Assembly: GCA_963921275.4 (NCBI GenBank)
Contig: OZ001293.3
Span: forward strand, 3,680,001-3,744,000
Source of the DNA: an uncultured Hormoscilla sp.
GTDB taxonomy: Bacteria; Cyanobacteriota; Cyanobacteriia; Cyanobacteriales; Desertifilaceae
Length of the DNA: 64,000 nt
Direction of reading: 5' to 3'
In this document: positions 7,000 through 63,961 of the stretch, one piece after another
Layout: each line of letters opens with the position of its first letter
Position numbering within the stretch: position 1 is the stretch's first letter
The notes under the pieces: model-generated
What the model was told of the DNA's origin: nothing
Database searches by the model: none
The model's input: the letters and a program-made list of their open reading frames with translations, nothing else
Program-made: the position numbers and the translations under genes

Positions 7000-7610
7000 T
7001 TTGAATATGAACGGCCGATGTCACGGCATACAAGCGTTGATAGCCAGTTTTGAGGTAGCGACGGGCAAGGTAATCTGTCCGTCAGTGGGACCTACCCGCA
7101 CTGAAGAAGATTTTGCAGCGCAGATCCGCGCTACTGTAGAAACAGACCCCCAAGGTCAATGGGTATTCATTTGCGACCAATTGAATACCCGACGCCCACA
7201 AATCCGAAACCCTGGTTAAGATTGTTGCTCAGTTGTGCGGCATTGAAGATGAATTAGGTTTGAAGGGAAAATCCGGCATTCTTCAAAACATGGCGAACCG
7301 TGCGACTTTTTTGCAGAATCAAAGCCATCGTATCCGCTTTGTTTATACCCCCAAATATTGCTCATGGCTAAACCAGGTGGAAATGTGGTTTGGCATAAGA
7401 ACTCGCCGGTTGCTCAAAAGCGGCAACTTCACGTCGATGTCTCCTGGGTAGTGCTTTTAGCGCTCGGCGTCTCTCGGGAGCGCTAAAAGCACTCCCGAGA
7501 GACGCCGAGCCCCAGGAGACATCGAAGCTTGAAGAACTCAAACGTCGTATTCTCGCATTCATTGAGTTCTTTAATCATACCTTGGCCAAACCGTTTCGTT
7601 AGACTTATAT
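7000..7610 (+). pseudogene. IS630-family transposase fragment
   Basis: FICDQLNT, RIRFVYTPKYCSWLNQVEMWF motifs; interrupted by a hairpin nest at 7434-7525. Confidence 0.8.
7434..7525. repeat. Two-level nested hairpin element
   Basis: Outer arms TCGATGTCTCCTGGG/CCCAGGAGACATCGA with loop TAGTGCTTTTAGCGCT; inner arms CGGCGTCTCTCGGG/CCCGAGAGACGCCG with the loop inverted (AGCGCTAAAAGCACT). Confidence 0.9.
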
Positions 7611-7817
7611 CCCACTTTCTGCACTACAATTTTAGTATATATACTACACAATTTATCAACTAGATTACTATTGTGCTACTTTTTGTAATCCGTACTAGCT
7701 CTGATAATTTAAGAAACAGGAAGTATATTTATTTATACGAATATGAACTTTTCGGTTCGTAAAATCACAAGCTATTTGTCATCATTACGTCAAACATTTG
7801 TCCGTGCGGAATGTAGG
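7611..7817. mobile_element. ~210-bp MITE, copy 2
   Basis: Similar to 5779-5989 and 39595-39805; flanks TTATAT/TTCTAT. Confidence 0.75.
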
Positions 7818-7863
7818 TTCTATCGGTAAGCCGTTGCTGATCTAAGTTAAGCTGTGATGCATT

Positions 7864-8932
7864 TATAGCATTTCTCAGAGTTATGAGGTAGAATATAGTA
7901 AGCCTTGCAGGAGTCTGGCAGCGATTTTTGCTCAAACCATTACCCTGCAAGGGTTTGAGCCGCAGGTGCTCGGGAGAGCGATATTTGCACAAATGATGCC
8001 CGGCTCGCTATAATAAAAGTAAGTTCAAAAAGAAGTGTTAGGAAAGCGATGAAACCATATTCAATAGACTTTAGACAAAAACTAATAGAAGTTTACGAAC
8101 AGGAAAAGACATCTATTCGTAAATTAGCTCAAGGTTTTCGGCCAAGAGTTTTATTCAAAACTTTATTAAGCAATATAAAGAAACAGGCGATATTAGACCC
8201 AAACGTCGGTAGTCCACCGACTAAGTTGAATAGTGAGCAATTAGTTAGTTTAGTAGAAATTATGGAGACTAATAATAATGCAACGCTTGAAGAGTTATGT
8301 GAATTGCTTTATGAAAAAACGTGGGCGAAAATGGGAATAATTACTCAAAAATTAAACTCAAAAAAAAACTTTGCACAGAAAAAGAACGATATACTTGAAA
8401 AAAGAGTAAAATATGGGGAGACATTAACCCTAAAGACTTATTATTTGTGGATGAATGTAAATTTAGCACTGGATGTATGGTAGAAGTTTAAAAGGAGAAA
8501 GGGTCAGAGAGAGTAAACCTCAAAAAAGAGGAAAAAATGTTTCATTAATTGGTGCTTTGTCATTAGAAAAAGTAGTAGCTATAAGATAATTTTACGGCGA
8601 TAACTTTTGAAGCTTTTATAGTAATAGATTTAGTACCGCAGGAAAAATGCTGTGTAGTCATGGATAATGCTAAAATTCATCAAGATAAAATGGTTCGAGA
8701 AGCTATTGAAAAAGTAGGCGCCAAATTAATTTATTTATCTCCTTATTCTCCTTTTCTCCAATTGAAAACTTTTGGTCTAAAGTTAAAGCTTTTTTAAGGA
8801 AAGTTAAAGCAAGAACCTATAAAGATTTAATCGAGGCAATTGCAGATGCTATTCTACAGGTAAGTCAGCCAGGTATTCACAATTGGTTTGCTCACTGCTG
8901 TTACTGTACCTCATGACTATGAGAAACGCTAT
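7864..8932 (+). mobile_element. IS630-family element, degraded
   Basis: Ends TATAGCATTTCTCAG...GAGGTA / TACCTC...GAGAAACGCTATA; MKPYSIDFRQK start, VVMDNAKIH and IENFWSKVK motifs with frameshifts. Confidence 0.8.
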
Positions 8933-9221
8933 AAATTGCATAGTCCAAAATGGGGCAGGCTGGGTGGCGAGCGCCGCTTATGGGTAGAGGGTTCCCAAGA
9001 TTTTATCGGCAGCCCGAATATGCAGTTTAGAGGCGCGACAGCTTATCGGTGTTATTTGCGGTGTGGTGTACTAGTAGATGAAACTCGATACGAGTTAAGA
9101 CGACGAGTGATGATAATGGTAAATCTTGAGAGAGCCTGATTCATTCTTGAGATGCTCCCATAAATTCCCCCATCTTGATGGTAGATTCTGTAATCTTATT
9201 AATTGCTGTCTCATCTGCTAC

Positions 9222-10112
9222 CTACTTTCCCTCATCTAACAGATACTCCAGAAAAGTCTCAGCCACCACAGACAGCTGTTTGCCACTGGGATAAACCACA
9301 TGCCAATAACGTTCGATCGGAAAACCTTCTACATCCAGGATAGTCAGCCTACCAGTACCACATTGCAAGGCTAGGGTATGCTTCGATAATACTGATATTC
9401 CCAAACCACCCACGATCGCCTGTTTGATCGCCTCATTACTCCCCAACTCCAGCCTCACCTTGACAGAAACATTATGCTCGCGGAATAATTTTTCCACTGC
9501 CCTGCGTGTACCCGATCCTGGTTCTCGCATGATAAACGGTGAGTCCCTCAGACGTTCTAGGGGAATATTTTTTTCCTCTGCTAGGGGATGATTTCCGTCT
9601 GCCAACACCACCAAAGGATTTTCCAAGAATTTGTGACTCACTAGGTCAGTATTTTCCGGGACTTGACTGAGAATATACAGATCGTCTAAATTATCATTCA
9701 TTCGGGACCGCAGACCGTCATGGTTAGTTACCTGCAAGGACACGTCAATACCGGGGTAACGCTGACAAAACGGTCCTAACAAACGCGGCACAAAGTATTT
9801 CGCCGTGGTAATCACCGTTAGTCGCAATTGTCCCTGCTTTAGACCTTTGAGATCCGCCACCGCCATCTCCAACTGGGATAACCTGTCGAAAATATCCCGG
9901 CAGGCGGCAAACAGTTCTTCACCGGCGTTTGTCAGAAACAGGCGTTTACCGACTTGCTCGAACAGCGGCAAACCCACGGTTTTGGTCAACTGCTTCACCT
10001 GCATGGAGATGGTGGGTTGGGTTAAATACAGTTCCTCGGCAGCCCGGGTGAAACTGCCGTGGCGTGCTGCGGCCTCAAATACTTTTAACTGGTGGAGTGT
10101 TGCCTGCTTCAA
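9222..10112 (-). CDS. CbbR-type LysR transcriptional regulator (NdhR/CcmR/CmpR-like)
   Basis: HTH ATLHQLKVFEAAARHGSFTRAAEEL, REPGSGTR, LGSNEAIKQA; adjacent to CO2-uptake genes. Confidence 0.9.
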   Translation of the reverse strand: MKQATLHQLKVFEAAARHGSFTRAAEELYLTQPTISMQVKQLTKTVGLPLFEQVGKRLFLTNAGEELFAACRDIFDRLSQLEMAVADLKGLKQGQLRLTVITTAKYFVPRLLGPFCQRYPGIDVSLQVTNHDGLRSRMNDNLDDLYILSQVPENTDLVSHKFLENPLVVLADGNHPLAEEKNIPLERLRDSPFIMREPGSGTRRAVEKLFREHNVSVKVRLELGSNEAIKQAIVGGLGISVLSKHTLALQCGTGRLTILDVEGFPIERYWHVVYPSGKQLSVVAETFLEYLLDEGK

Positions 10113-10367
10113 GTTCCCTTCTCCTCAAAGGAGCCTTAACTATATATATTACTCTATCATATTTTCCCTCAATAAGCATTTTATTTATCGAAAATCCTTC
10201 CTGAATTCCGTTGGACTACAAATGTAGAGAGATGGCCCACCAGATACACGGCTACGCCTGCGCTACCGGTAGTGATAACGGCACAAGTTGTGTAAGTACT
10301 CAATAGTAAAATCTATGCATTTAATAATCTTTACTCTATGCTCTCCAGGATCTTTACTCAGTTGCTG

Positions 10368-10517
10368 TGGACATATTCACTCTTTTGCCCAGAAACCAGG
10401 TATATGAGAAAAACCTGGTTTCTTAATTCTTGCTATTAACTATGGACATATTCACTCTTTTGCCCAGAAACCAGGTATATGGGAAAAACCTGGTTTCTTA
10501 ATTCTTGCTATTAACTA
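10368..10517. repeat. 75-bp tandem duplication containing the hairpin AGAAACCAGG...CCTGGTTTCT
   Basis: Two near-identical units starting at 10368 and 10443 downstream of cupB; related motif at 62065-62100 and 62290-62327. Confidence 0.85.
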
Positions 10518-10535
10518 TCAACTATTCGGATGTAG

Positions 10536-11702
10536 CTAGCTGTTGACTATCTGCAAGCGAGAGGTGATAAAGCGATCCATCCAATTTTCCAGGTAAACTC
10601 GGTTTGCTTGCTGTTGTTGGGGATCTTCTGTATCCAGGGGATAAGGTGCCAGTCCTTTGATCCCTGCTGTGGTTACGCAAAACATTGATTTCTGGAAACT
10701 CTGGCAAATCTTTACTCGCAAATCATTTTCTCCCCTACCCGATCGCCGATAAAACTCCTGTAGATATTCTGGCAGATAATGGCGCATATCCTGCATCAGC
10801 AATGTCGGAGGAATGCCTGCACCTCCGATCGGCAAGGGATCGGCATATAAAGCACCATAGCCAAATTCGGCTTGATTTTGAGGAATTTGTTGAGCTTGAG
10901 CGTTGTAAGAAACTGTACCCAAGAAAGGTGTTCCTCGGAAGAATATCGTATCCACATAGGGGACTGCTACATCTGGCAGAAATGTCATCCCTGCGGCTTT
11001 GGGAATGATATCATAATCGTCACCCTTAATCGTCACTGTGTAGGTAATTGGTTTTGCCGCATCTGCCACTAAACCTGCTAGGATATGCTGTACTACTTCC
11101 GGGATTGACTTTATTTCTCCTCGGTCATAGCGATCGGACAGTGATATAAATATATCGCTCATTACCCGCCAGAACTGACCCAAGGCACTATAATATACCA
11201 TCTGCCGTACCTGTTCTAGCTGAAATTCGGGAAATAGCTTGTGCAGTCCCAGCATCAACCAATTTCCCTTAAATTTAGCCTCGATCGCTAATGCTGCTGC
11301 TCGGGTAAATTCCGGGCTATCTAGGTACTCATCCAGGGCCCCACCGCCGTGCCATAGCATTACTCGCATCACGTACTCGGCATACTCGTAGTTAATCCGA
11401 TCGTGCCACCAATGGCGCAGCAACTTTTTGAATGATATGTCCCCGTCGCAGTATTTGAAGAAGGGAAACAAGGCTAAAAATTGATTTTGGGCAATGTATA
11501 TCAGGTTATTGGAGTAGGCGTCCAGCACGACGCCGTAGCTATAAAGAATTCCCACTACTTCCAATACATTATCTGGCGAATCTGACAGTAAATTGCCACC
11601 CGCTTCCATAATGTTAATATAGGCTGCCAGGGGATGTTTTGATGGTTGAATGTTTTTTGTCATTTCCCTGATTTGACGATCGACGGGGTTAGAGATTGGC
11701 AA
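10536..11702 (-). CDS. cupB: CO2 hydration protein CupB/ChpX (start may be ~11663)
   Basis: HWWHDRINYEYAEY, GIPPTLLMQDMRHYLP, SFQKSMFCVT; length fits CupB rather than CupA; follows ndhD4. Confidence 0.88.
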   Translation of the reverse strand: MPISNPVDRQIREMTKNIQPSKHPLAAYINIMEAGGNLLSDSPDNVLEVVGILYSYGVVLDAYSNNLIYIAQNQFLALFPFFKYCDGDISFKKLLRHWWHDRINYEYAEYVMRVMLWHGGGALDEYLDSPEFTRAAALAIEAKFKGNWLMLGLHKLFPEFQLEQVRQMVYYSALGQFWRVMSDIFISLSDRYDRGEIKSIPEVVQHILAGLVADAAKPITYTVTIKGDDYDIIPKAAGMTFLPDVAVPYVDTIFFRGTPFLGTVSYNAQAQQIPQNQAEFGYGALYADPLPIGGAGIPPTLLMQDMRHYLPEYLQEFYRRSGRGENDLRVKICQSFQKSMFCVTTAGIKGLAPYPLDTEDPQQQQANRVYLENWMDRFITSRLQIVNS

Positions 11703-13158
11703 ATGATGTGACTATAGAATTGGTTGTCACTTCACTCAAATGTACTACCCAGCTTGGCTGAATTCCTAATATGACGATCGCCGCTGCTAGGGCGATCGCC
11801 GGGAGATGGTCGGACCACTGCACTGGCGGCAAGTTTTCTACCATCTGGGACAAGCGTCCGAAGAAGGCCCGGTTCACCAACAGCAAAAAGTAGACAGCGG
11901 TTAACCCCGTACCCACCATGCACAGCAGGGTTTGAGTGGGGAATATGGGAAAACTGCCCCGAAACACTAAAAATTCTGAAATAAAGCCTACCATGCCGGG
12001 GATGCCTGAACTGGCCATGACGCTCAAAATCATTAAACTGCCAGTCACGGGCAAACCCCGTTCTGGGTTGAGGAGTCCTTTGAGGGCTGTGATATCCCGA
12101 CTACCAGTTTTCTTATAGACTACGCCCACCAAGATAAACAGCAGCCCTGATATTAATCCGTGGCTGATCATTTGCAGGACTGTTGATAATAAGCTGAGGG
12201 GGGTGGCGGCGGCACCAGCTAACAGTATATAAGCCATGTGGGCAATGGAGCTAAAGGCGACCATTTTTTTCATGTCTGTTTGGGCGATCGCGCTCAAGGC
12301 CCCGTACAGGGCGCTGACCACGGCCCAAGTTGCCAACCAGGGAGCTAAATTAGCCCATGCATCTGGAAATAGTTCTAATCCAAATCTGAGCAGACCGTAA
12401 GTTCCCAGCTTCAACAATACTCCAGCGAGCAGTACCGAAATTGGTGTACTAGCTTCTACATGGGCATCTGGCAACCAGGTATGGAAGGGCACTAGGGGAA
12501 TTTTAATCCCAAAGGCCACCAGTATCCCCCCTAGCAGCAGCAGTTGGGTTCCCAGGGGTAAAGCTGCCGCCATCTGCGGGTTGTAGGCAAAGCTGTTGGC
12601 ACCAGAAAGCCAGACGAGGCCCAAAAATGACGCTAGCAGGAAAATTCCCGATACTGCGGTATAGATGAGAAACTTGGTTGCTGCATAGCCTCGGCGCTTG
12701 CCCCCCCAGATGGCGATCAAGAAATATAGGGGGATGATTTCTATCTCGTAGAACAGGAAAAACAGCAGGTAATCCTGGGCTAGGAATGCACCGGCTACGC
12801 TGGCATTCAACAGCAGGACGAGTACGTAATAGAACCGGGGACGACTGATTTCCGAGTCCGTACAGAATAGGGCGATCGCCGTCAGCAGACCGTTGAGCAC
12901 CAATAAGGGGAGTGACAGACCATCTACTCCCAGACTGTAGCTCAGACCCAGGGCCTCTATCCAGGGTATGGACTCTGTAAATTGCAACTCCGGGATCGTC
13001 CGGTCAAACTGACTTAGCAGCACGATCGTCCAGATAAAGACGCTGATGGCAACGAACAGCGCTATGGAACGCGATCGCCCGGGACTGAGGGAACCGGGCC
13101 AGAACCCGAGCAAAACGGCACCTATTACCGGCACCCATATCAAACCACTACTGAGCAT
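11689..13158 (-). CDS. ndhD4: NAD(P)H-quinone oxidoreductase subunit D4
   Basis: NuoM-family motifs PFHTWLPDAHVEASTP, LLKLGTYG, GLLNPERGLP; directly upstream of cupB. Confidence 0.85.
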   Translation of the reverse strand: MLSSGLIWVPVIGAVLLGFWPGSLSPGRSRSIALFVAISVFIWTIVLLSQFDRTIPELQFTESIPWIEALGLSYSLGVDGLSLPLLVLNGLLTAIALFCTDSEISRPRFYYVLVLLLNASVAGAFLAQDYLLFFLFYEIEIIPLYFLIAIWGGKRRGYAATKFLIYTAVSGIFLLASFLGLVWLSGANSFAYNPQMAAALPLGTQLLLLGGILVAFGIKIPLVPFHTWLPDAHVEASTPISVLLAGVLLKLGTYGLLRFGLELFPDAWANLAPWLATWAVVSALYGALSAIAQTDMKKMVAFSSIAHMAYILLAGAAATPLSLLSTVLQMISHGLISGLLFILVGVVYKKTGSRDITALKGLLNPERGLPVTGSLMILSVMASSGIPGMVGFISEFLVFRGSFPIFPTQTLLCMVGTGLTAVYFLLLVNRAFFGRLSQMVENLPPVQWSDHLPAIALAAAIVILGIQPSWVVHLSEVTTNSIVTSFANL

Positions 13159-14530: not shown

Positions 14531-14878
14531 TGAGGATGAATAAGTCCGGAGTGCGGTTGCGCAGTTCCCCCCGGTGGCGAAACTCAGTCTCTAACCGCTG
14601 GTTGACTTGCTTGGTGCAATCGCCCCGCACCCCCAGATTATAAATAACGTGACCAGCACTATCTGCGGTGTCTCCTAGGTGGTGCGATGTCTTCTGGGAG
14701 CGCTAGTCGCACCACACTGCGGCGACATCCAGCGGCGCCGCAGTCGTTCCACCCAGCCTCCGCCTTCATGGTCCCCGAAGCCGTACACTAAGCTATCCCC
14801 CAATGCCACTATCTTCAGGGGATGATGAGCCGTTGGTGAATGCATCTGATTGCAAGAATGAGCCACTGACTTGTACAT
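14525..14878 (-). pseudogene. GDSL/SGNH lipase pseudogene
   Basis: KIVALGDSLVYGFGD...GGWVERLRR and YNLGVRGD...RLETEFRHRGELRN; broken by a hairpin insertion at ~14665-14720 and truncated 3'. Confidence 0.8.
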
Positions 14879-32225: not shown

Positions 32226-33063
<838 letters not shown>

Positions 33064-33471: not shown

Positions 33472-36168
33472 ATGTCAACGCTTGTAATTGTCGAATCTCC
33501 GACCAAAGCCCGTACCATACGGAACTTCCTGCCCTTTGACTATCGTGTAGAGGCATCAATGGGTCACGTGCGCGACCTCCCCTCTTCTGCTGATGAAATT
33601 CCCGAAGCTGTCAAAGGGGAAAAATGGGCGCAGCTGGGGGTTAACGTGGAGGCGGACTTTGAGCCACTTTATGTTGTCCCCAAGAATAAAAAAAAGGTAG
33701 TCACAGAACTGAAAAAAGCCCTCAAACAGGCTGATGAACTAATTCTGGCAACAGACGAAGACCGCGAAGGTGAAAGCATCAGCTGGCATCTTCTGGATCT
33801 GCTGAACCCGAAAGTCCCCATTAAGCGGATGGTGTTCCACGAAATCACCCGGGAAGCCATACGTAAAGCGCTGTCGGACTGCCGGAATATCGATATGCAG
33901 CTAGTCCACGCTCAGGAAACCAGGCGGATTTTAGACCGACTGGTGGGCTACACCCTGTCTCCCCTGCTGTGGAAGAAAATTTCCTCGGGATTATCAGCTG
34001 GGCGGGTACAATCTGTAGCTGTGCGGTTACTGGTGTTGCGGGAACGTCAACGTCGAGCCTTCCGCCAAGGTAGCTACTGGGACTTAAAAGCGATTCTGGA
34101 TATTCAGCATACCTCTTTTGAGGCGCGATTAGTTACCCTGGCAGGCAGTAAAGTTGCCACGGGCAGCGATTTTGACCCGGATACGGGACAAATTGCCTCT
34201 GGTAGAAATGTCAGACTGTTAAATGAAGCAGATGCCAAAGAACTTCAAGCCCGTCTGTTGGGTAAAACCTGGAGAGTCAGCTCCGTTGATGAACGACCGG
34301 TGACCCGCTCGCCTTCACCTCCCTTTACCACATCGACCCTGCAACAGGAGGCTAACCGGAAGCTGGGGCTATCGGCCAGAGATACGATGCGGACGGCTCA
34401 AAGTCTGTACGAACAGGGGTATATAACCTATATGCGGACGGACTCTGTGCATTTGTCCCAGCAGGCGATCGCCGCTGCCCGAGCTTGTGTAGAACAGAAG
34501 TATGGCTCTGAGTATCTCAGCCCGACACCGCGCCAGTACAAGACTAAAAGCAAAGGCGCGCAAGAAGCGCACGAAGCCATTCGTCCAGTGTCTCCTGAGA
34601 GCGCTAGTCGCACTACTCAGGAGACACCGCCAGCAGGTAGCAGTTTCCGCACGCCGTCTCTGACGGGTCTGACAGGGCGGGAATTTCAGCTGTACGACCT
34701 AATTTGGAAGCGTACTGTCGCGACCCAAATGGCTGCCGCCAGGGTTACTCAAATTATCGCCCTGCTGCTAGTGGAAGGGGCTGGCTTCCGTTCGACTGGC
34801 AAGCGAATTGATTTTCCTGGTTTCTTCCGTGCTTACGTAGAAGGTTCTGACGACCCAAATGCGGCTCTAGAAAACCAGGAAGTGATTCTGCCACCCTTAA
34901 AGGTAGGAGATCGCCCCAACTGTCGAGAATTAGAGGCCATTGGCCATGAAACCCAGCCTCCCGCCCGTTATACAGAGGCGTCCCTAGTGAAAACCCTGGA
35001 AAAAGAAGGCATTGGGCGTCCCAGCACCTACGCTACCATCATCGGCACGATCGTCGATCGGGGCTATGCTCAAATAATTAACAAAGCCCTAGTGCCCACC
35101 TTCACGGCCTTTGCGGTCACCAGTCTGCTAGAAGCACATTTTCCGGACCTAGTAGACACCCGCTTTACTTCCCGGATGGAGCGAACTCTAGATGACATCT
35201 CTACCGGAGAAGTGGACTGGCTTCCTTATCTGCGAGAATTTTATTGCGGAGAAACCGGTCTGTCCAATCAGGTAAAAGAACAGGAAAGCCAAATTGACCC
35301 AAAACTTGCTCGGACCGTGGAACTGGTTGGCTTAGAGGCCAAAGTCTGCATTGGCAGATTTGGCCCTTACATCGAAGTTGATAATGGCTCTGGTGTGCTC
35401 AAAGCTTCCATTCCCAAAGACCTTACCCCAGATCAGCTCGACTCCGAACAAGTAGAAGCGCTGTTGAAGCAGAAAACCTCTGGACCAGAGGAACTGGGTC
35501 AGCACCCAGAAACTGGCGATACTATCTATCTCCTGAATGGCAACTATGGCCCCTACCTGCAGCTGGGTGATGGCGATAGTGAGAAGAAGAAGAAGCCCAA
35601 GCGGTCCTCTCTACCTAAAGGCGTCACTCCCGATCTGGTCACCCTGGAAATGGCCGTAGGATTGTTGGCCCTGCCTCGCTTTCTGGGATCCCACCCGGAA
35701 ACTGATGCTAAAGTCCATGCTGGTTTAGGACGTTTTGGCCCTTATGTGGTTCACGACCAAGGTAAGGAAGGTAAAGATTATCGTTCCTTAAAGAAAGATG
35801 ACAATGTCTTGACAATTGATCTCCAACGTGCATTGGAGTTACTCGCTGAACCGAAGAAGCGACGCAATAGCCGCAGTAAGAAACCTTTACGAGAGTTGGG
35901 TAAACATCCATCAGATGGAGAACCAGTGAATATCTACGATGGGCGTTATGGTCCTTATGTCAATCATGGCAAAATTAATGTTACTTTGGCAGAGGGGACA
36001 GCGGTCGAAGAGGTGACCTTGGAGATAGCCCTAGAATTGCTAGCAGCCAAGGCTTCCACATCTTCAACCCGTCGCAAGTCGAGTAAGTCAACCGGGACTA
36101 AAAAGACTAGCGCCCGGCTTCCGGAGGGTAGTGCTTTTAGCGCTCCCTCCGGAGGCCACAAGCAATGA
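33472..36168 (+). CDS. topA: DNA topoisomerase I
   Basis: [53 protein letters not shown]-terminal GRFGPY repeats. Confidence 0.97.
34586..34629. repeat. Hairpin element in frame inside topA
   Basis: GTGTCTCCTGAG-AGCGCTAGTCGCACTA-CTCAGGAGACAC, adding [15 protein letters not shown]. Confidence 0.9.
36116..36157. repeat. Hairpin element in the topA 3' end
   Basis: GGCTTCCGGAGGG-TAGTGCTTTTAGCGCT-CCCTCCGGAGGCC. Confidence 0.88.
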
Positions 36169-42478: not shown

Positions 42479-42801
42479 CGGTGTTCCCTGGGTAGTGCGA
42501 GTACAGCGCGAGCGGTCTCCGGTAGTGCTTTTACGATGTCTCGGGGGTAGTGCAGCGCTCTGTATCTCCCCTTTTGTGCGATTACGATGTCCTCCCTTTT
42601 GTGCGATTAGCGCTCCGCGTCCCCTTTTGTGCGATTAGCGCTCTGTATCTCCCCTTTTGTGCGATTACGATGTCCTCCCTTTTGTGCGATTAGCGCTCCC
42701 GGAGGACATCGAGCGACCAGGAGATACAGAGTCCCGGGAGACCGCTCGCCCTGTCAGGAGATACCTCGCCCTCCGAGACATCGAGCGACCAGGGAACACC
42801 G
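42479..42801. repeat. Multi-level nest of hairpin elements with internal tandem duplication
   Basis: Left arms CGGTGTTCCCTGG, GCGAGCGGTCTCC, CGATGTCTCGG, CTCTGTATCTCC, CGATGTCCTCC have complementary partners on the right in near mirror order. Confidence 0.88.
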
Positions 42802-42891
42802 CACTGCTGCGCAGTCCAACGGGGACTGGGAAGAATCGAAGCAAAAAGCTATGCAAGAATTCTTAGAACATGATGGCTTATCACCGGACAT

Positions 42892-42935
42892 CGATATCTC
42901 TGGGGAGCGTTAGGAGCACTACCCCAGAGATATCG
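42892..42935. repeat. Single hairpin element
   Basis: CGATATCTCTGGGG-AGCGTTAGGAGCACTA-CCCCAGAGATATCG. Confidence 0.9.
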
Positions 42936-43071
42936 GAGAAGCCGCAAAGGGAGCTTTAATAATCCCCAAGCTCGATCGACCTGAAACCCTAACTCGACGT
43001 GAGTTCGACAGATTGGACAAAGCTGAAAAAATGGTGGAGACTGGATTTGAAGGATTCTGGTCTCCGCCGAT

Positions 43072-49765: not shown

Positions 49766-52700
49766 TTATTTTGCTGCCCCAACTCCGCCAGATATATCGG
49801 AGTAATCAGCAGCACTGTCGTAGTCATCCCGCGAGTTACTATCGGACGCCCCATCTTCAGAAGCATTGAAGCCAGTACCGGCGGGAATCAAGCGTCCGAT
49901 GATCACATTTTCCTTGAGGCCCCGCAACCAGTCAGACTTACCTTCGATCGCGGCCTCAGTCAGCACCCGGGTGGTCTCCTGGAAGCTTGCAGCTGAGATA
50001 AAGCTATCTGTATTCAGAGATGCTTTGGTAATTCCCAGAAGCACGGGGGTGTAAATTGCTGGTGCTCCTCCGGTAATGGACAGGGCATCATTAACCTGTT
50101 GCACTTCGTAGATCTCGACTAGCTCCCCTGGCAGCATTGTGGTGTCACCGCCATCATCAACACGACCTTTAGATGTCATTTGCCGCACGATCACTTCTAT
50201 GTGCTTGTCAGAAATGTCAATCTCCTGAGACTGGTAGACTGACTGCACTGCATTCACTAGAAAGATCTGCACTTCCTGTAATGCTGCTAAGGCTGCTTCA
50301 TCAACTGTGCGCGGGTTATGATTATTGCCCGATGTGCGAGGGACAGTGCTTCTAGCGCTCGCCAGAGATATCGAAGCTGACTGCTCGCCACCATCGGTGT
50401 TCCCACTAGCTATTTCTCGGTAGAGATTAAAGTAGACTTCCAAGATCTGGTGGGGATTAGACGGGCCATCAGAGAGCGGTTGCCCTGCTTTGATTTGCTG
50501 TCCATCAATTACTATTGCACTTTGACCTGGCCCTAGGGTATACTCGGCGATCGCTCCATCCGATTCGATCACTTTAACTGCAACGGTTTCATCTTCTTGA
50601 TAGATCACCTGAGCTGTTCCCGGTCTTGTGGCCAGTACGCAAAATTCTTTGGGCTTACGGGCCTCCAGCAGTTCTTCGATCCGTGGTAACCCCTGGATAA
50701 TATCTCCGGTCTTCGAGCGATCAAAGACGAGCAGCACCAAATTATCACCTCGCTGCACCAGGTCTCGATCTTCTATGTGGAGTATTGCTCCGGCCGAAAC
50801 CCGGTAAGGACGGGCTATGCGCAATATAACTAGAGTCCCGGACTCTGACGAGGAGACTTGGAGCACTTGACCTGATTCTGGCAAAAATACTCCCGGCGCT
50901 ATCTCGGTGCCATCTAGCAGAAAATCTCCTGCTTTCACTTCTACTAATAGGTTGGGTAAGTCGGCAATGACAAGCTTGTCAAGGTCGCGCAAGACCAGGA
51001 GTCGGCGACCCGCAGAGGATCCTTCTCGAATGCCTTGAACTATGCCTGCTTCTTTGCACTGAATCTCTGTCTTGGCTACTACTTCACCGGGGGCAATCTG
51101 TTGGCCATCGCTTACTAGTATGCGGGTATGGGAACTTCCTTGAGTCGGGTCTGCTGCTACATCACGACGGATGACTAGAGATTCTAGTATGACTAGCTGC
51201 AACCGCATGATTTCGCTCGTGGTCTCGTCTGTTACCAGTTCTATATCTGCTTCCAGGTTTCCCGATGTGGCGCTCCTATGTGAGATGAGAATTTCTTTGT
51301 TTATATAAAGCACTAGCTGGGTGCGCAACAATTCTAAGCCGGAAACTGATTTGACTCTTTCTCCGTCTTTGTATGGCAACCGCTGCACTGTCCGGAGCTG
51401 TATTAAGCCGCCATTATCTTGAGATGATTCCTGAGATGGCACAAGGGGTGTGTCTGGAACTGTATATTCTATTGCTGGTCGGAGCCGCAGGGCTGGTCCG
51501 AGCGGGGTGTCTAGGTATTCTACATAGCGTAAAGAAGCTCCCATGAAAACATCTGTTGGCGATGCCTGAGGGGTTTTTGCGAAGCATCCCGATTTTTCAG
51601 GCATCGAAGGTCCATTTGGCGCGACGGCGCCACTCACAAGGGGGACCGTCTGAGCTGTCGCAAGCTGTTGGTCTTTTGTCGATGGATCCTCACTGCTTTC
51701 TACTTCCATGAGAGCAAGGTCGAGGTTCAGGTTCAACTCCCGCGCAGGAGCTCTGCTTGCTTCGGACAGTCCTAATGAGGCAATGTTGGACCGATCGATC
51801 AATGTCCCCTCTTTTGGGATTTCTGTGGAATTGGTGATTAAATGCAATGAGCCGGGTTTGATGGAGATCTCGCGGAGGATGTCATTTTTCTCGATTACCT
51901 GGACGCAACCGCTGCTGGTGCAGAAGATGTCTTTGACTATTTCCGTGCCTGCTTCTACATATTGACCATCTTCGACTAGGCGCACTGAGCTATCTTTATT
52001 CACTTCATATGTTTCTTCTGGGAGCCACAGTAAGGTTCCACCTTTGGTGACTTCATATCCCTGTTTTGCTTTGCTCCGCTTTGCTTCGACTCCTGCATAT
52101 TTGATCGTACCGCCTGTGGTTGTGCGATAGCCCTCATCTAGCAGTTCTGCCACTACTTGACCATTGCTGACTTGCGTGCCGGGTGTGGCGACCAGAGAAA
52201 ATTTCTGACCCTCTGCGGTGGTGATGATATACTGCTCTTTGCCTTGGTCTTTGCTGATGGATACTCCAGCTCGATCTAGCAGTACGCTGGCGGTAATGAT
52301 TTCTATTTCCCGTCCCGCTTCTTCTGTGCCTATTGCCTCTGGGAGTCTGACTATGCCTCCATGTTCTGTGCGGGTACTGGTTTGGGCGATGACTGAACCC
52401 CGCGAGATGCGATCGCCATTTTGCACTACTGGTTCTGCTCCCGGGGGCAGGTTGTATACCTCTCCTGAAAGAATCCAGATTAAACCTCCCACTCTGGCGA
52501 CGCGTGTTGTGTTTCCTTGCCGATCGCGCTTTTCTTCTGGTATTATGTCGGTGAATATTGCTTCCCCGGATATATCACTGGCTACATCTTTGGTGGCTTT
52601 TTCTGTACTGATTTTGGACATTGCGCCTGTCGGTGGCACTTCGGCGATTCTCTGACCTGCTGTTATTCTATCCCCATCTTTTACCAGTATTATTGCTCCC

Positions 52701-53971: not shown

Positions 53972-54130
53972 TTTTCTGTTGTCAGTTGTCAGTTGTCAGC
54001 GTTTAACATTCTCTCTGCCTGGTACGTGCTCACCAAGAATCTATCGGGCTCTTTGTAGTGAGCCTGCTGTGTCTCTTGACAGAAGTGATGGGCCTGGTAC
54101 TTATAAAAATAGTACCAGCGTGAGCGTCTG

Positions 54131-54266
54131 CGATATTTCTGGGGATCTCGATGTCTCTGGATATCTAGATGTTTCCCGGGAGCGCCTTAAGCACAACTCC
54201 GGGGTAACATCGTATTCGCACTACCCCGGAGATATCGTATTCGCACGTCCTCTCTGGGGGATATCG
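54131..54266. repeat. Three-level hairpin nest between rpoB and rpoC2
   Basis: CGATATTTCT.../...GGGATATCG, CGATGTCTCTGG/CCGGAGATATCG, GATGTTTCCCGG/CCGGGGTAACATC; loop remnants TATTCGCACTA. Confidence 0.8.
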
Positions 54267-54275
54267 ACCTCTACT

Positions 54276-57200
54276 TTACTCGTAACTTTCGGACATTTCC
54301 TCTACTATTGCGCTAGCCCCACGATAAGAGCCCCGACGATTATTGCTAGTATCTGCCATCAAATCTATTTCCTTTGATGTATTTGTGCCATCGGCGTGAT
54401 TTTCTACTTTATGCACTGCTATATCCAGACACAGTGACTGCAATTCCCGCATCAGCACTTTAAAGGATTCGGGGGTTCCTGGTCTGGGTATTGCTTTGCC
54501 TTTGACGATCGCATTTAGGGCTTCATTGCGTCCTTGCATGTCGTCCGATTTTACTGTTAGCAATTCCTGCAATGTGTAGGCTCCGCCAAATGCTTCTAGG
54601 GCCCATACTTCCATTTCTCCGAACCGCTGACCGCCCTGCTGTGCTTTTCCTCCCAAAGGTTGTTGGGTGACGAGGGAATAGGGGCCTGTGGAGCGTGCGT
54701 GGATTTTATCATCTACTAAATGCACGAGCTTCAGCATATATGCTTTGCCTACGGTAACTGGTTGGTCGAATGGTTCTCCTGTCCGTCCGTCATATACCTG
54801 GATTTTGCCGGGGTTTTCCTGGTTATACAACCATTTTTTTCCGGTCTCATAGACTGCCGAGAGCAATTTTCCATGTACTGTTTCTCGGGACTTTTCTTTG
54901 CCGTGCATTTCGTCAAAGGGCAGTATCTTATAACGAGTGTCCAGGTTTTCTCCTGCCCATCCTAGCAGGCATTCAAATATCTGACCTACGTTCATCCGAG
55001 ATGGCACTCCTAATGGGTTGAGGATGATATCGAGCGGTGTCCCATCGGGCATGTAGGGCATGTCTTCTATGGGCAATATCCGAGATATTATGCCTTTGTT
55101 GCCGTGGCGACCTGCCATTTTATCGCCGATCTGGATCTTCCGCTTTTGGGCTACGTATACGCGCACGACCATGTTTGCTCCTGGTGGCAATTCGTCTCCC
55201 TGTTCTCGGGTAAAGACGCGCACGTCTACTACTCGTCCTTTTTCGCCGTTTGGCACCCGCAGGGAGTTATCCCGGACATCCCTGGCTTTTTCTCCAAATA
55301 TGGCTCTGAGCAGTTTTTCTTCGGGTGGCTGATCTGATTCTCCTTTGGGGGTTACCTTGCCGACGAGGATCTCTCCTGTTTCTACCCAGGCTCCGATCCG
55401 AATTATGCCTGTTTCGTCTAGCTGCCGGAGGGCCTCTTCTCCGACGTTGGGGATCTCGCGGGTGATTTCTTCTGGTCCTAGCTTGGTTTGACGGGCTTCG
55501 ATTTCATATTTTTCGATGTGAATGGAGGTGTACAGGTCTTCGACTACTAGCCGTTCTGATATCAGGATGGCATCTTCGTAGTTGTACCCTTCCCAGGGCA
55601 TGTAGGCTACGAGGATGTTTTGCCCTAGGGCTAGTTCTCCTTTTTCTGTAGATGAGCCGTCTGCTATTACTTGCCCTTTTACTACTTTGTCCCCGACATG
55701 CACGATCGGTTTTTGGTTCAGGCAGGTGTCTTGGTTGGAGCGATGATATTTATGCATTTCATAGGATATCTCTCGCGGAGGTATTTGGAAAATGTCTAAT
55801 TTTGTCTCGATGTCTCCCCCAGAGGGGACGTGCGAATACGATGTCTTCTCTTTTGTGCGATTAGCGCTCTGTATCTCCTGGGTGGTGCGGTTAGCGCGAG
55901 GTTTCTCCTGAGTAGTGCGAGTATGATGTCCCTCGGGTTTCGCCGTGCGTTCGGGGGACATCAAGCTCCCAGGAGATACCTCACCAGGAGATACCTCGCT
56001 CCCAGAAGACATCAAGCGACCATAGATATCGAAGCCTGTGCTTTCGCCATTAAAGAGCGATCCTGCGTCGCGAGCACCCGCAGGACCAGTAGCCAGGTGC
56101 GGCCGCTGCGCGTCGGATGAAGCCTTTTTCGGTATGCTTCTGACCCGTATTTTGGTTGCATCCACGTAGGTTACTACTCCATCTTCTTTGGATACGATCA
56201 CCATCCCCGAATCTCTGGCTGCCTGGGTTTCCATGCCAGTTCCTACTAATGGCCGTTCTGGACGCAATAGGGGAACTGCTTGTCGCTGCATGTTTGACCC
56301 CATGAGGGCCCGGTTGGCATCGTCATGTTCCAGGAAGGGGATTAAGGATGTTGCCACTGAGATGATTTGCACCGGTGATACGGAGACGTAGTCTACCTGG
56401 TCTGGGGTGGTGGTGGTGAAGTCTTGGCGATACCGTACTGGCACGATGTCGCTGGAGAGCTTGCCATTTTCGTCCACCGGTATGTCTCCTGGAGCTACCC
56501 GCAGGTCATCTTCCTCATCTGCTGTCATGAACACTGGGGGGATGTCGCGCCTGATTTGGCCATTTTCGACTCGGTAATATGGAGTTTCGATAAATCCATA
56601 TTCATTCACCCGGGCATGGGTGGCGAGGGATCCTATTAATCCGGCATTGGGACCTTCTGGGGTTTCAATCGGACATATCCGCCCATAGTGGGAAGGGTGA
56701 ATATCCCGCACGGCGAACCCTGCCCGTTCCCTGGTTAGTCCTCCTGGTCCTAGGGCGCTCAACCGCCGTTTATGGGTCAGTTCTGCTAAGGGGTTTGTCT
56801 GATCCATAAACTGGGATAGCTGGGATGAACCAAAGAATTCCTTGATCGCTGCTACTAATGGTTTGGAGTTGACTAGGGATGTGGGTGTCAATTGATCTGA
56901 GTCTAATACTATCATCCGCTCTCGGATTATCCTCTCTAACCGGTTTAATCCCACCCGCACTTGGTTTTGTAACAGTTCTCCGACCGCTCGCACTCGTCTG
57001 TTTCCCAGGTGGTCTATATCATCTATGGTGCCGATATCAAATTCCAGGTTGATCAGATAGTCTATGCTTGTCAGTATGTCCTCTTGGGTCAGCACTCGCT
57101 TCGTTTCTGACACAGAAAGGCGCAGCTTTTTGTTCAGCTTGTAGCGTCCTACTTTGCCGAGGTCGTAGCGTTTGGGGTCGAAGAAGCGGGATTCTAACAG

Positions 57201-57923
57201 TTGCTGTCCACCATTGACTGTTGGCGGTTCTCCTGGCCGCAGCTTGCGATATAGTTCTATCAGGGCATCTTCATCGGTATATTCTCCTTCTTTGTCGATG
57301 GTTTTCTGGAAATAATCTGGGTGACGCAAGGAGTCCAGTATTTCACTGGTGCTCATCCCCATTGCTTTGAGCAATACTTGGGCCGACAGCTTCCTGGTTT
57401 TGTCTATCCTTACCCATACCAGGTTATTTTTATCTGTTTCAAATTTTAGCCATGCTCCGCGATTGGGGAGCAGGGAGGCGTTGTAGGTCCGCCGACCGTT
57501 TTTGTCTGTTTCTGATTTGTAGTACACTCCGGGCGATCGCACTATTTGGTTAACGATGACTCGCTCTGATCCATTTATGATAAATGTGCCCCGATCTGTC
57601 ATCAGTGGCAGTTCGCCGATAAATACCTCTTGCTCTTTAATTTCCCCGGTTTCTTTGTTGAGCAAACGTGTGGGGACATACATTTGCACTGCGTAGGTTG
57701 CATCCCTGCGCTTTGCTTCTGCTACGTCGTATTTTGGTCGAAGGAGTGAGAATTTTTTCCCCAAAAAATGTAGCTCTAGTTTTCCCGTGTAGTCTGTTAT
57801 TGGAGAAAAGCTGTCTAGCTCTTCTATTAATCCCTCTTCTAGAAACCAGCGGAAGCTCGCTCTCTGGATCTCTACTAGATCTGGTAATTTAAATTTCACT
57901 TTTGTGTCGATCCTCTGATTCAT
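54276..57923 (-). CDS. rpoB: RNA polymerase beta subunit with a large in-frame insertion
   Basis: [52 protein letters not shown]. Confidence 0.98.
55807..56032. repeat. Five-level hairpin nest in frame within rpoB
   Basis: TCGA at 55807 and 56029, 222 nt apart (74 codons); five concentric arm pairs. Confidence 0.9.
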
Positions 57924-58241
57924 TTTCTGTCAAGGCTGCAAGGCGCGTTATTCTTATACTGAGCAATTTTGTCTCGACACGATCGCTGCCATTTGATACT
58001 CGGGAGGAGGGAAAGGGAGGGTTACCTTCGCGCTGCGGCGAGACGAACGGTGCTTCGATATCGCCGTGTCCCCCCTCCTTCCCACAGCGAAGCCTGGGAA
58101 GGTGCGAGTAGCGATCTGCGTCTCAAGAGCATGTGCTCCCGATATCTCCTGTGTGCCGATAGCGCTGCGCTGGGGGCGCAGCCATGTCCCCTGAGACAAG
58201 AGAGCTGGCAGAGATATCGAAGGGGAAACATCGTAGTCGCA

Positions 58242-61851: not shown

Positions 61852-62097
61852 AGTATAACATATAGGCGTTGCATATTTTGGGGATGTTATCAGCACTCTT
61901 GTTAACAGTTGACAATTGACAATTGTTCATTGCTCAAACTTCTATATATGACCAGTAATGCTGTAATTGTCAATTATCAAAACTTATAAATCCCTATTGC
62001 CTAGTTTAATTACTTCTATAACTATATGTAGCAATCGAATGCTTCTTTGTGAACTCAAAGATGCCCAGAAACCCGGCAATATGCCCAGAAACCAGGT

Positions 62098-62285
62098 TTC
62101 GATATATCTGGGGAGCGCGCACTACCCCAGATATATCGAATCAACTTCTAGAGTTGGGGGAGTCTCAAGTGAGACTCCCCCAACGGGTGCATATCACTTT
62201 TGCGGCGATGTGCTCTGCGCGCTCGATGTCTCCGGAGAGCGAGCGCTAATCGCACTACGCATCGCACATCGCGGAGATATTCACC
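62098..62285. repeat. Cluster of hairpin elements
   Basis: TTCGATATATCTGGGG-AGCGCGCACTA-CCCCAGATATATCGAA; palindrome 62153-62184; nest CGATGTGCTCTGCG...AGCGCTAATCGCACTA...CGCATCGCACATCG. Confidence 0.85.
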
Positions 62286-62406
62286 GGTAGCCCAGAAACC
62301 CGGTTTTGCCGGAATTATCGGGTTTCTTAATTCTTGCATTGAGATGCACCCTCCCCCAACTCCTGCCAATAGCGCTGCTTTGCGCCAACAACTTCCCTAG
62401 TTCCTT

Positions 62407-62736
62407 TTACCACTCATCCTGGCGTTTATCGATACTGAACCTCTCAGGATTTTGCAGTTTCGGAAAACGATAGAAAGTATTCCCCTGGGCATCCACTTCT
62501 GGGATGGCTGAAAAAATTTGCACTTGTTGTTGCAAGAACCTCTGAGCAACCAGAGCATCGATTCTCGCCGCCGCCGCCAGCTGAATGAGAGAAACCTCCC
62601 CATTTTGCTTTTCTAACAGCTGATAGAAAGCATTTTGCAGCTGTCGCTGACGCTGACCATTTTGGATAGTATTCAAGACATACAGACCTACCAGCGAACT
62701 CAGTCCAATCACAAAGGCAATTTCCAGAATGGCCAT
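62407..62736 (-). CDS. Hypothetical membrane-anchored protein
   Basis: MAILEIAFVIGL N-terminal TM segment; FYQLLEKQNGEVSLIQLA...EVDAQGNTFYRFP looks like a real protein. Confidence 0.65.
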   Translation of the reverse strand: MAILEIAFVIGLSSLVGLYVLNTIQNGQRQRQLQNAFYQLLEKQNGEVSLIQLAAAARIDALVAQRFLQQQVQIFSAIPEVDAQGNTFYRFPKLQNPERFSIDKRQDEW

Positions 62737-62749
62737 AACACAATCAACC

Positions 62750-63961
62750 TTATACGTAGTGCGTGACGATGTGCGATGCGCAGTTCGAATAGCACGCGCA
62801 GAGCACATCGGAGCCAGGAGCGCTAGCTTTCTGCGGTTGCACTAAATTAGAAGCTCCTTCTATCACTTTAGCGGATTCAATTACATCTCCCTGAGTCAGC
62901 TTCCCTAGTACCTCAAAGCCTTCAGTCACATAGCCAAACGCGGCATAGCGACCATCCAACAGGTTAACACCAGGTGGTGTCAGCTCTGTTTCAAACAGGA
63001 AGAAGAAAAACTGAGAAGAACCCCCATTCAGATCTTCATCCGGACGAGCCATCCCCAGCGTGCCATAGGCTGCGAAGGGAAGCACCGGATGGGAGCGATA
63101 CATACCCGCCTCTTCTAGGGTAATACCATAGATTGGGGAAGGCTCATTTTGGACCAGGATCTCCAAGGGAATAGCCCGGTATTCCCCTGTATCGGGGTCA
63201 ATGAAACCGTCTTCGGGGCCCGGGGGATCTCCCACTTGCGCCACGTATTGTTTTTCTACCCTTGTAAACTCCAGACCGTCATAGAACCCGCGCTGTACCA
63301 GATCCACAAAATTACCAGCGGTAACCGGGGCACTGTAACCGTCCAGCACCGCTGTTATCTTGCCCTTATTGGTTTCGATCGCCACGGTGGCCCGACCTAA
63401 CAGTTGTGGCAGGTTGTTGTACTCCGATGGTACTTCAAAGGTCATGCCGCGCACCATTAACTGTTCTAGCTGCCCCACCAACTCCAGCAGTTCGTCTCTG
63501 AGGGTCTGCACCTGTTCTTTATCTTCAACTTCAGCAGCTTCTCTTAGAGAGGTCAGTCCTGACTCGATCTGGGCTATGATTGATTCTGCTTGTGGTTTGC
63601 TATCCGAAGGCACTGACGAGAGCAGTTGTGACTGGCGAAGGTTGCTCGTGGTCTGTACCTTAGTGATGTTTCTCGTGATGTCACTCCAATGCTTGCCTCG
63701 CAGTGCTGTGGAGATGCTTTCCAAATTGGCTTGCATTTCCCGCACTGGTTGATTGTCAATTGGTAGGGCATACCGCAACAGGGTTTTGCCATCGGTAATA
63801 GCGTCCCCAGAGGGTAAGAGAGTCTGCTGGGGTTTTTTACTGCCCCTAAAATTCCACCAAGCGGCGTCCAGTCCGATCGAGAGGGTAAACAGCAGCACTG
63901 CTAAGATGCCTGTCTTCAGCCAGCGCTGCCATAGGTTAGTCCTTGACTTGCTTACATCCAT
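62750..63961 (-). CDS. Cyclophilin-type peptidyl-prolyl isomerase (CYP38/TLP40-like)
   Basis: LLRYALPIDN, LDGYSAPVTAGNFVDLV, GTLGMAR, GSSQFFFFL, LDGRYAAFGYV; repeat-derived C-terminal tail. Confidence 0.92.
   Translation of the reverse strand: MDVSKSRTNLWQRWLKTGILAVLLFTLSIGLDAAWWNFRGSKKPQQTLLPSGDAITDGKTLLRYALPIDNQPVREMQANLESISTALRGKHWSDITRNITKVQTTSNLRQSQLLSSVPSDSKPQAESIIAQIESGLTSLREAAEVEDKEQVQTLRDELLELVGQLEQLMVRGMTFEVPSEYNNLPQLLGRATVAIETNKGKITAVLDGYSAPVTAGNFVDLVQRGFYDGLEFTRVEKQYVAQVGDPPGPEDGFIDPDTGEYRAIPLEILVQNEPSPIYGITLEEAGMYRSHPVLPFAAYGTLGMARPDEDLNGGSSQFFFFLFETELTPPGVNLLDGRYAAFGYVTEGFEVLGKLTQGDVIESAKVIEGASNLVQPQKASAPGSDVLCACYSNCASHIVTHYV

Follow-up and report, generated by a model that had tools for sequence, protein, structure and literature searches.

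A window of 64,000 nucleotides from the chromosome of an uncultured Hormoscilla sp. (contig OZ001293.3, positions 3,680,001 to 3,744,000 of the forward strand) includes the topoisomerase I gene topA and the RNA polymerase genes rpoB and rpoC2, and within and between these genes are copies of a small palindromic element with a nearly invariant core flanked by two mutually complementary arms. These copies belong to a well supported, genus-restricted family of ~45-bp non-autonomous mobile DNA elements, and it is very likely that the hairpin element has been mobile recently, a non-autonomous mobile element having been proposed by a sequence-only reading of this stretch; copies are precisely present or absent among five genomes of the genus and among paralogous sequences within one genome. 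The source genome (G000) has a chromosome (C1) of 6.88 Mb with 47% G+C and 4738 HIP1 octamers, which mark it as cyanobacterial, and was compared with four other genomes of the same genus (G001 to G004). Relatives are represented by a single genome per species, loci in the relatives are given L-numbers, and the matching public records are titled Hormoscilla. The copies and composite structures present in the window, with strands where assigned, are as follows.

7434..7525, plus strand: nested pair, with the outer arm at 7434-7448, the core at 7449-7464 and the right arm at 7511-7525
7465-7510, opposite core orientation: inner copy of this pair, directly after the outer core, at TAGCGCT(C)^
14670..14730, minus strand: degenerate composite with two left halves and one core (core 14699 with 1 mismatch; 18.4 bits)
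34586..34630, minus strand: clean single copy in topA (68 bits)
36111..36162, plus strand: single copy in the last topA codons (57.6 bits), shared with G003 and absent from G004 and G001
37626-37689: weak extra copy (23.9 bits, E 0.00025), absent from the earlier list
42479..42800, plus strand: nested, rearranged array (cores 42599, 42627 and 42682; model match 42664-42715)
42888..42939, minus strand: clean single copy (59.3 bits; predicted DNA fold -16.1 kcal/mol, z -7.0)
50326..50377, plus strand: degenerate copy in rpoC2, arms not matching (14.2 bits)
54000..54331: nested array in the rpoB-rpoC2 spacer (model match 54190-54241)
55777..56025: nested array in rpoB, 249 nt in place of 6 nt
58141..58222: composite insertion within an older copy, starting GATATC... 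and ending ...GATATCGAA
62096..62142, minus strand: copy with a shortened core of 11 nt (50 bits)
62206..62271, minus strand: nested or degenerate copy (core 62242; 25.7 bits)
62763..62814, plus strand: divergent copy (24.4 bits)

With at most one mismatch allowed, TAGTGCNNNTAGCGCT has 13 matches in the window as compared with 0.09 expected from shuffles. Twenty-five clean copies, preselected for at least 13 arm pairs, served to build a covariance model, which, run on the window without filters, returned five strong matches, at 34582-34633 (minus), 42888-42939 (minus), 36111-36162 (plus), 7461-7511 (minus) and 62096-62142 (minus), and eight weaker matches, including those at 42664-42715, 54190-54241, 62206-62271, 62763-62814, 14681-14723, 55920-55967 and 50326-50377. 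The sequence-only reading had listed 13 places with a shared conserved loop, and a core match or a model match is present at 12 of these. The remaining place, 58140, has neither and is accepted as a member of the family from its sequence and alignment; the copies at 14670, 50330, 58140 and 62777 are degenerate or composite. The two cores of the 7434 pair begin at 7449 and 7479, with the model match at 7461-7511 scoring 56 bits, and no orthologous DNA for this stretch was found in the relatives. Parsed by eye, the array at 42479 opens with eight left halves, and their right arms come after them in an imperfectly reversed order. An independent public contig spans 51563-55859 with 0 differences, independently assembled contigs reproduce the arrays, and most contig joints in the sequencing-run assemblies reflect other repeat copies.

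Within the 16-nt core, TAGTGC-NNN-TAGCGCT, which corresponds to the conserved loop of the sequence-only reading, only the middle triplet varies appreciably (GAG 49, GAA 36, GAT 33, GAC 21 and TTT 19 among 194 exact cores), and the core can also be read as two direct half-sites, TAGYGC. All 194 exact cores are on the chromosome, with none on six small contigs, and most are flanked by 14-15 complementary bases. The complete palindromic unit of ~45 bp has the layout 5'-13-nt arm, TAGTGC-NNN-TAGCGCT, complementary arm, G-A/C-A-3', and a typical unit in the TAGTGC... orientation, preceded by C, reads GATGTCTCCNGGG TAGTGCGANTAGCGCT CCCNGGAGACATC GAA. An arm filter was needed to recognize copies, because a reversed control pattern still gives 189 raw motif matches on the chromosome as compared with 741 for the real pattern. 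With a cut-off of at least 11 of 13 arm pairs, in a set assembled chromosome-wide without the preselection used for the model, there are at least 247 recognizable copies, of which 120 are perfectly Watson-Crick paired with 67 different 13-nt arms, and the flanks of most copies are mutually unrelated. The arms, of 13-15 bp, vary between copies and are complementary within them. Among the 25 preselected model copies, 13 of the 15 stem pairs have changed on both sides and the covariation score of 0.586, as compared with 0.185 in shuffles, was reached by 0 of 500 shuffles, so that the variable but complementary arms described by the sequence-only reading are borne out. The termini CGRTRTC...GAYAYCG that it described are also confirmed. 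Loop triplet and arm type are weakly linked (mutual information 1.61 as compared with 1.41 when shuffled, p = 0.002). One subfamily, with CGAG in both arms, which predicts a tandem G.A/A.G mismatch in the stem, has many retained copies and includes C1:1190473, C1:4341448, the C1:1533162 family and relatives at window position 62777.

Folded as single-stranded DNA, the unit is predicted to form a lower stem of 13-15 bp, a bulged T, an upper stem of 5 bp (AGTGC/GCGCT) with one G.T pair, and an apical loop of 5 nt, GANTA, so that the core would be folded rather than an open loop. The strand with TAGTGC has a predicted energy of -17.4 kcal/mol, as compared with -14.0 kcal/mol for its complement, in which the G.T pair becomes A.C. 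At the foot of the hairpin, a C immediately precedes the 13-nt arm on the left in 227 of the 247 copies, and a G follows on the right in 221. Beyond this G come A or C and then A (GAA 87, GAG 35, GCA 31), their counterparts on the left being much less constrained. The tail is therefore polar: A comes next on the right in 62 of the 71 copies that have TC...GA and the base to the left of TC is near random, and copies with only GAA outnumber those with only TTC by 41 to 5 (p = 4e-8).

The covariance model, with per-genome counts taken from the best ~150 scored candidates, matched all four of the other genomes of the genus. There were no model matches in 36 other relatives, comprising 9 genomes of two sister genera and 27 from other families of the order, nor in 150 genomes sampled across the phylum, some of which overlap with the 36. 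An exact 19-base pattern, searched for in one genome per prokaryotic species, identified at least 77 loci, those listed all being in Hormoscilla sp. records, and restriction of the family to one genus is well supported by these sequence comparisons. In the source genome, contig C3 (31,420 bases) has 17.6% G+C as compared with 47% for the chromosome, no HIP1 site and no hairpin copy, and may be foreign DNA or contamination.

The copy at 34586 is a clean gain of 45 nt, present in G000 and absent from G001 to G004. The source genome reads CATTCGT, the 45 nt and then CCAGCAGG, where all four relatives read CATTCGTCCAGCAGG, and the boundary can be slid by 4 nt (CCAG). When the 93 best-scoring copies in the relatives were compared with the source genome, no placement was possible for 42; 30 are shared, 17 (14 sites) are precisely absent and 4 are complex, and thus about one third (17) of the 51 resolvable copies are precisely absent from G000, even though the flanking DNA is 87-96% identical between those species; for sites seen in two genomes alone, gain and loss are indistinguishable. 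Bulk comparison of 400 kb of G002 added few sites. Paralogous repeats within the source genome also differ by exactly one unit, as in C1:693547 and C1:1545729, and in C1:679665 and three paralogues, and at C1:1533162 the hairpin entered a high-copy repeat of which 7 of the 10 paralogues found are filled and 3 are empty. Many of these events must be recent, because the flanks of filled and empty pairs are 79-100% identical. Within the window, the copy at 14670 is missing at the matching G001 site, with a gain of ~56 nt; the insertion at 58141..58222 is present in G000, G003 and G004 and precisely absent from G002; the array in the rpoB-rpoC2 spacer occupies ~330 nt as compared with ~98 nt in G004, as judged by the ends of high-scoring segment pairs; and at the intergenic site at 62763, G002, G003 and G004 have a different variant of the family and G001 has none.

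Comparison of occupied and empty sites also defined the unit, at 44-46 nt with no target duplication. The clean insertion events, read by eye from pairwise alignments, are few (17) and were drawn from the best-scoring copies; their net gains are +45 in 12, +44 in 3, +46 in 1 and +49 in 1. None has a target duplication, with boundaries that slide by 0-2 nt, and by 4 nt once, at 34586. In eight events with a GAA tail, the inserted piece is a 13-nt arm, the core, a 13-nt arm and GAA, and the left flank ends in TC in all eight (in both alleles in 6, with one allele GC in 2), such that the TC of the flank pairs with the GA of the tail. Three events with a GC tail follow GC or TC, and the inner nested copy at 7465-7510 has the tail AGC after GCT. 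Usually the 2-3 bases that close the left flank can pair with the first bases of the tail, which lengthens the hairpin into the flanking DNA. By eye, several empty sites themselves lie close to the middle of a small palindrome, such as TACGGC^CCGTA and CTCTTC^GGAG.

The element also inserts into itself. There are 928 [GA]GTAGTGC sites; in 255 an intact loop follows, and in 127 the loop is broken by YGATG... after ...GANTA, a position (GANTA^) that coincides with the 3' edge of the predicted apical loop. Loops make up <0.1% of the chromosome, yet approximately one third of the recognizable loops are interrupted at this one fixed position. Nesting in the TAGCGCT half of an older loop, as first proposed from the sequence, is in this way confirmed and sharpened, and the proposal that the preferred target of the element is itself is supported. 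A second nesting site, located after TAGCGCTC at the junction of the upper and lower stems and opposite the bulged T, obeys the TC rule and is backed by the 7434 pair and by two loci at which species differ, L080 and L136. In all 23 nested cases that were resolved, the outer loop retains only GCT, GAT or GCGA after the inner copy, and in 19 of the 23 the inner core is oriented like the outer one. Such nesting events, stacked and later rearranged, make up the arrays at 42479-42800, 54000-54331 and 55777-56025.

Copies are present within essential genes. The window ORF at 33472-36168 (898 aa) is identified by Pfam, against which seven window open reading frames (ORFs) were compared, as topoisomerase I, with Topoisom_bac extending over residues 140-587. 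Translated by eye, the 34586 copy adds 15 in-frame codons, residues 372-386, inside this catalytic domain, and the copy at 36116 supplies the C-terminus of the protein. In rpoB (54276-57923, minus strand; 1215-aa ORF, also identified by Pfam) the nested copies result in a net gain of 243 nt, or 81 codons, that leaves the frame open and is absent from G002, G003 and G004; the degenerate copy in rpoC2 is missing from the same three genomes. By eye, neither the 34586 copy nor the consensus has a stop codon on the strand opposite to that bearing the TAGs, which, together with the unit length of 15 codons, lets copies persist within essential genes. Chromosome-wide, 76 of the 247 copies (31%) are in stop-to-stop ORFs of at least 600 nt, as compared with 53% of 5000 random chromosomal positions, a depletion in ORFs that stops well short of exclusion. 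The sense strand lacks the two TAGs in 53 of these 76 copies, the strand bearing the tail being antisense in 53 and sense in 23. The value of 53% is low for a bacterium, and may reflect many broken genes or long spacers.

Resident copies have also changed after insertion. The core is inverted between species at fixed orthologous sites (L092 and L107 relative to G000, and L139), the middle triplet has been swapped as a block at L108 (TTT as compared with GAG), and GGGTA has been replaced by CTTTT at two loci (L070/L094/L040 and L112/L137), the CTTTT form being present in 38 copies. One copy has no core, this having been deleted between CGGAG repeats. Short-patch conversion between copies, whose palindromic arms allow alignment in either direction, would explain the inversions, the triplet swap and the CTTTT replacement.

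Other small repeats are present in the same regions. A core-like motif at 15353 (window 15340-15400), not on the earlier list, was rejected as a member of the family as it has no arms and is inside a different small repeat, ACGAAGTGCTGCGCAGCAGCTAGTGC...TAGCGCT, of which 7 copies were found and the window copy is conserved in G002, G003 and G004. In rpoC2 of G002, G003 and G004, there is a different small repeat ~30 nt to the left of the position of the G000 hairpin copy (L243, L240 and L241; window 50290-50330). This repeat belongs to a third small repeat family, with CGATTTTTCCGGAACGG, which has ~218 copies in G000 with at most one mismatch and is also present at L111 and L136. At 33000-33063, there is a 60-nt repeat with dozens of matches in the relatives at 78-87% identity, many at the ends of contigs in the fragmented G003 assembly, that is probably the end of an insertion sequence or of a MITE (miniature inverted-repeat transposable element).

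Taken as a whole, these observations are best explained, with a probability that we estimate at about 0.5, by a unit that an enzyme supplied in trans would cut or copy out and reinsert in the form of a single-stranded DNA hairpin. In the model for IS608, the ends are hairpins, the target is read by pairing at the foot of a hairpin and single-stranded circles are the proposed intermediates. The enzyme that moves the Hormoscilla unit would recognize the invariant top of the hairpin (upper stem, bulge and loop) and would accept a lower stem of any sequence so long as it pairs; such recognition of structure and loop together, as the sequence-only reading had suggested, would fit the invariant core, the covarying arms and the predicted fold. 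Integration would join the unit 3' of a C, typically of TC, and the first two bases of the tail, GA or GC, would pair with the target dinucleotide to extend the hairpin into the flank, with no duplication. Target choice would thus be aided by tail-target pairing, as in IS608 and as proposed for repetitive extragenic palindromic (REP) sequences (PMC3333891). The apical loop and the loop/arm junction of resident copies are strongly favoured as targets, giving rise to nested arrays, and core inversion, short patch replacement and slippage deletions would then reshape the copies. A more specific version, which we offer tentatively and regard as rather unlikely, is that the unit exists as a 45-nt single-stranded DNA circle in the form of a dumbbell, with the bulge, upper stem and pentaloop at one end and the tail as a G-N-A triloop at the other, the triloop being opened by an enzyme that is not of the Y1/HUH type, which would join the unit to single-stranded targets, and pairing with 2-3 target bases. 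If so, the tail would programme the target, the element would be the smallest self-guided mobile DNA, and the preference for hairpin loops, including its own, would be explained.

Several observations weigh against the single-strand hairpin explanation. The commonest nested junction, TA^YGATG...CATCRA^GCT, breaks the simple target rule as its left flank ends in A rather than C, and the outer loop is 2 nt short in all 23 resolved nested cases, for a net gain of 43 nt; attempts to reduce this junction to the cut positions of non-nested insertions did not succeed. Junctions are untidy at L091/L131, L098, C1:696708 and C1:2689612, and sites seen in two genomes may have arisen by precise loss instead of gain. 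Mismatches in the arms are G.T in 75 cases and A.C in 57, not a significant excess (p = 0.14), and the arms therefore give no sign of a single-stranded stage. Chromosomal copies are divided 123 to 124 between the plus and minus strands, with no switch along the length, although this comparison has low power because the GC skew is too weak to place the origin. A mobilizing enzyme was not found by a Y1/HUH search, by a split-arm search or by a scan of ORFs bracketed by copies. The sole Y1/HUH match in G000 is outside the window at C1:241795-242139, within a locus (C1:241400-242700) that encodes a 158-residue protein in a 206-codon open frame, and is flanked on both sides by tandem GTAG-tagged REP hairpins (GTAGCCCGCGCAGGCGGGC...) of a different family, of which the genome has ~130 copies. 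Where solved IS200-type transposases have HIH (HUH motif), this protein has QDH, with the tyrosine retained. The arrangement is that of a classical locus for a REP-associated tyrosine transposase (RAYT) with its own repeats. The presence of Y1 genes does not track the element, because 38 of 41 relatives have them.

The split-arm search, for a parent element with arms 60-6000 nt apart, gave 38 pairings (19 without duplicate rows) that involve common arm types and were read as separate complete copies. There are 44 intervals in which ORFs are bracketed by two copies; 21 ORFs were selected and 12 compared with Pfam, the other nine being housekeeping-like by eye. Among the 12, there was no transposase or nuclease, eight had no match, and those matched were SAICAR synthetase and NFACT, above the cut-off, and a glycyl-tRNA synthetase fragment and Calx-beta, below it. 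No Y1 match is present in the window, and the Pfam scan of the seven window ORFs revealed nothing to contradict the absence of an enzyme from the window; window 6500-8600 has mostly no orthologous DNA in the relatives. RAYT-like Y1 genes are located a few kb from the orthologue of window 9185-13214 in G004 (C17:120593-120934) and G002 (C6:1277235-1283976).

The resident REP-associated Y1 transposase could, in principle, move both families, which would make a REPIN/RAYT-type system acting on two substrates. No other HUH-family gene was detected in G000, and RAYTs act on single-stranded hairpins, require an imperfection in the stem and a GTAG tag, and cleave on either side of the hairpin (PMC3333891); the core of the element contains both GTAG and a bulged T, and its insertions lack a target duplication. 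The GTAG of the element is, however, at the top of the lower stem rather than 5' of the hairpin foot, and within 3 kb of the gene there is no hairpin core, at up to 3 mismatches, beyond weak look-alikes. With, in addition, the flanking repeats of the other family, the replacement of the first His of the HUH motif and similar long Y1 genes in other genera that do not have the element, involvement of this transposase is doubtful. A route without an enzyme, by template switching, would have a nascent strand that ends in C or TC jump to a resident copy, copy the hairpin and return, with quasi-palindrome correction keeping the arms paired. This would account for left junctions that resemble microhomologies of 1-2 nt, for perfectly paired arms despite 67 variants, for arrays of partial units, for nested junctions that have lost 2 nt and for deletions by slippage between short direct repeats, and for cores inverted or swapped at fixed sites. 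It is less easily reconciled with a near-fixed unit length (45 nt in 12 of 17), a right boundary fixed after G-A/C-A, the lack of consistent homology at the return junction and the strict polarity of the tail, and, as hairpins and replication are universal, with confinement to one genus; on balance we consider it an unlikely source of the insertions.

Reportedly, Elhai and colleagues in 2008 suggested that cyanobacterial small dispersed repeats (SDRs) spread by reverse transcription of an RNA hairpin, and a similar RNA-based integration would be in keeping with a tail-bearing strand that has G.T (G.U) rather than A.C in the upper stem and folds better. Against this route, G.T is not in excess over A.C in the arms, there is no 3' A-tract or other mark of reverse transcription at the junctions, and the tail-bearing strand is mostly antisense in long ORFs, and would therefore seldom be carried by gene transcripts; we judge it improbable. 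Finally, the copies might not be mobile, but be selected sites of host protein binding or RNA structure, spread by duplication of larger segments. A near-invariant 16-nt core with two direct half-sites could suggest such a function, and some copies do ride in larger repeats, as in the C1:1533162 family, but gains of precisely 44-46 nt at unrelated sites, including topA and rpoB, the third of resolvable copies that differ between closely similar species and the unrelated flanks of most copies are contrary to this, and it is already contradicted by the filled and empty site pairs, making it highly improbable.

Reinsertion of a single-stranded hairpin, as preferred here, invites comparison with known systems. 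As in REP/REPIN-RAYT systems, the element is a short, high-copy, lineage-specific palindrome with compensatory stem changes, for which stem imperfection and hairpin form matter and no target is duplicated, and a genuine REP/RAYT locus is present in the same genome. In REP-type repeats, one end of the stem-loop has an unpaired GTAG or CGTC that is conserved (PMC3733652; PMC3333891). The Hormoscilla element has no such tag at its foot, which consists of C...G and the G-A/C-A tail, has GTAG in the core only, and is invariant at the apex of the hairpin and variable in the lower stem. It also consists of single hairpins rather than doublets, is 45 bp in length as compared with 20-40 bp, and has 31% of its copies in long ORFs whereas REPs are mainly between genes; a cognate RAYT gene flanked by the element (a REPtron) was not found, the RAYT-like gene being flanked by other repeats. 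Palindromic repeats and REPs are also documented within ORFs, in frame in genes for DNA metabolism, and REPs can be embedded in longer palindromes (PMC3733652). The palindromic elements of Rickettsia similarly are in frame in genes that are likely still functional, including genes for DNA and RNA metabolism, although those of the RPE-1 type are longer, occur in other phyla (PMC3733652) and have no sequence relation to the element, the in-frame property of which follows from a unit fixed at 45 nt. Insertion 3' of a short specific sequence without duplication, the -1 base here being C in 227 of 247 copies, is shared with the IS200/IS605 family, as is recognition of the target through base pairing at the hairpin foot (partly PMC3333891). 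Unlike members of that family, the element has one hairpin instead of two ends, no coding capacity and no orientation bias detectable with so weak a GC skew, and G000 encodes no IS200-type TnpA other than the RAYT-like protein with its altered HUH motif. MITEs, such as Nezha in Anabaena and Nostoc, are 70-300 bp in length with the terminal inverted repeats of a parent insertion sequence and direct target duplications (PMC3184786). The element resembles them in being non-autonomous, with filled and empty sites between related species, but has no target duplication (overlaps of 0-2 nt, and of 4 nt once) and no longer split-arm relative.

A second close parallel is within the cyanobacteria. In 2008, Elhai and colleagues are said to have described small, self-nesting repeats, SDR1-8 of Nostoc punctiforme and its relatives, which form hairpins that show compensatory changes and are reportedly 21-27 nt in length and confined to heterocyst-forming cyanobacteria. 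Like these, the Hormoscilla element is a very small, recently mobile cyanobacterial repeat with no known enzyme; it nests in itself, as seen in the 127 loop junctions and in the nested gains at L080 and L136, and forms hairpins with compensatory changes (13 of 15 covarying pairs, 67 paired arm types). It differs in its length of 44-46 nt and its presence in one filamentous genus, and is set apart from SDR1-8 by these descriptions rather than by their sequences. The view of the sequence-only reading that the architecture is unfamiliar was therefore overstated, given these small dispersed repeats and REPs embedded in palindromes (PMC3733652). SDR5, one of the cyanobacterial small dispersed repeats, is treated in PMC4390886 and PMC13756078. 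A full-text search found no description of the element itself, and the main text of a comparative genomics study of the genus (PMC6520454) has no mention of palindromes, transposases, mobile elements, insertions or pseudogenes, its three uses of 'repeat' being unrelated. By its behaviour, the element is closest to REP/REPIN sequences and to the small dispersed repeats of Nostoc.

To our knowledge, how the smallest bacterial repeats move, both REP-like hairpins and cyanobacterial SDRs, is largely unsolved, and this family provides clean material, with a fixed 45-nt unit, many recent gains across five genomes, a readable target rule and a single hot spot in the loop. The element can lengthen essential proteins without breaking them, as exemplified by the 15 residues added to topoisomerase I and the 81 added to the RNA polymerase beta subunit. 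For the genomes of sponge-associated cyanobacteria, it accounts for assembly breaks and for lineage-specific insertions in core genes.

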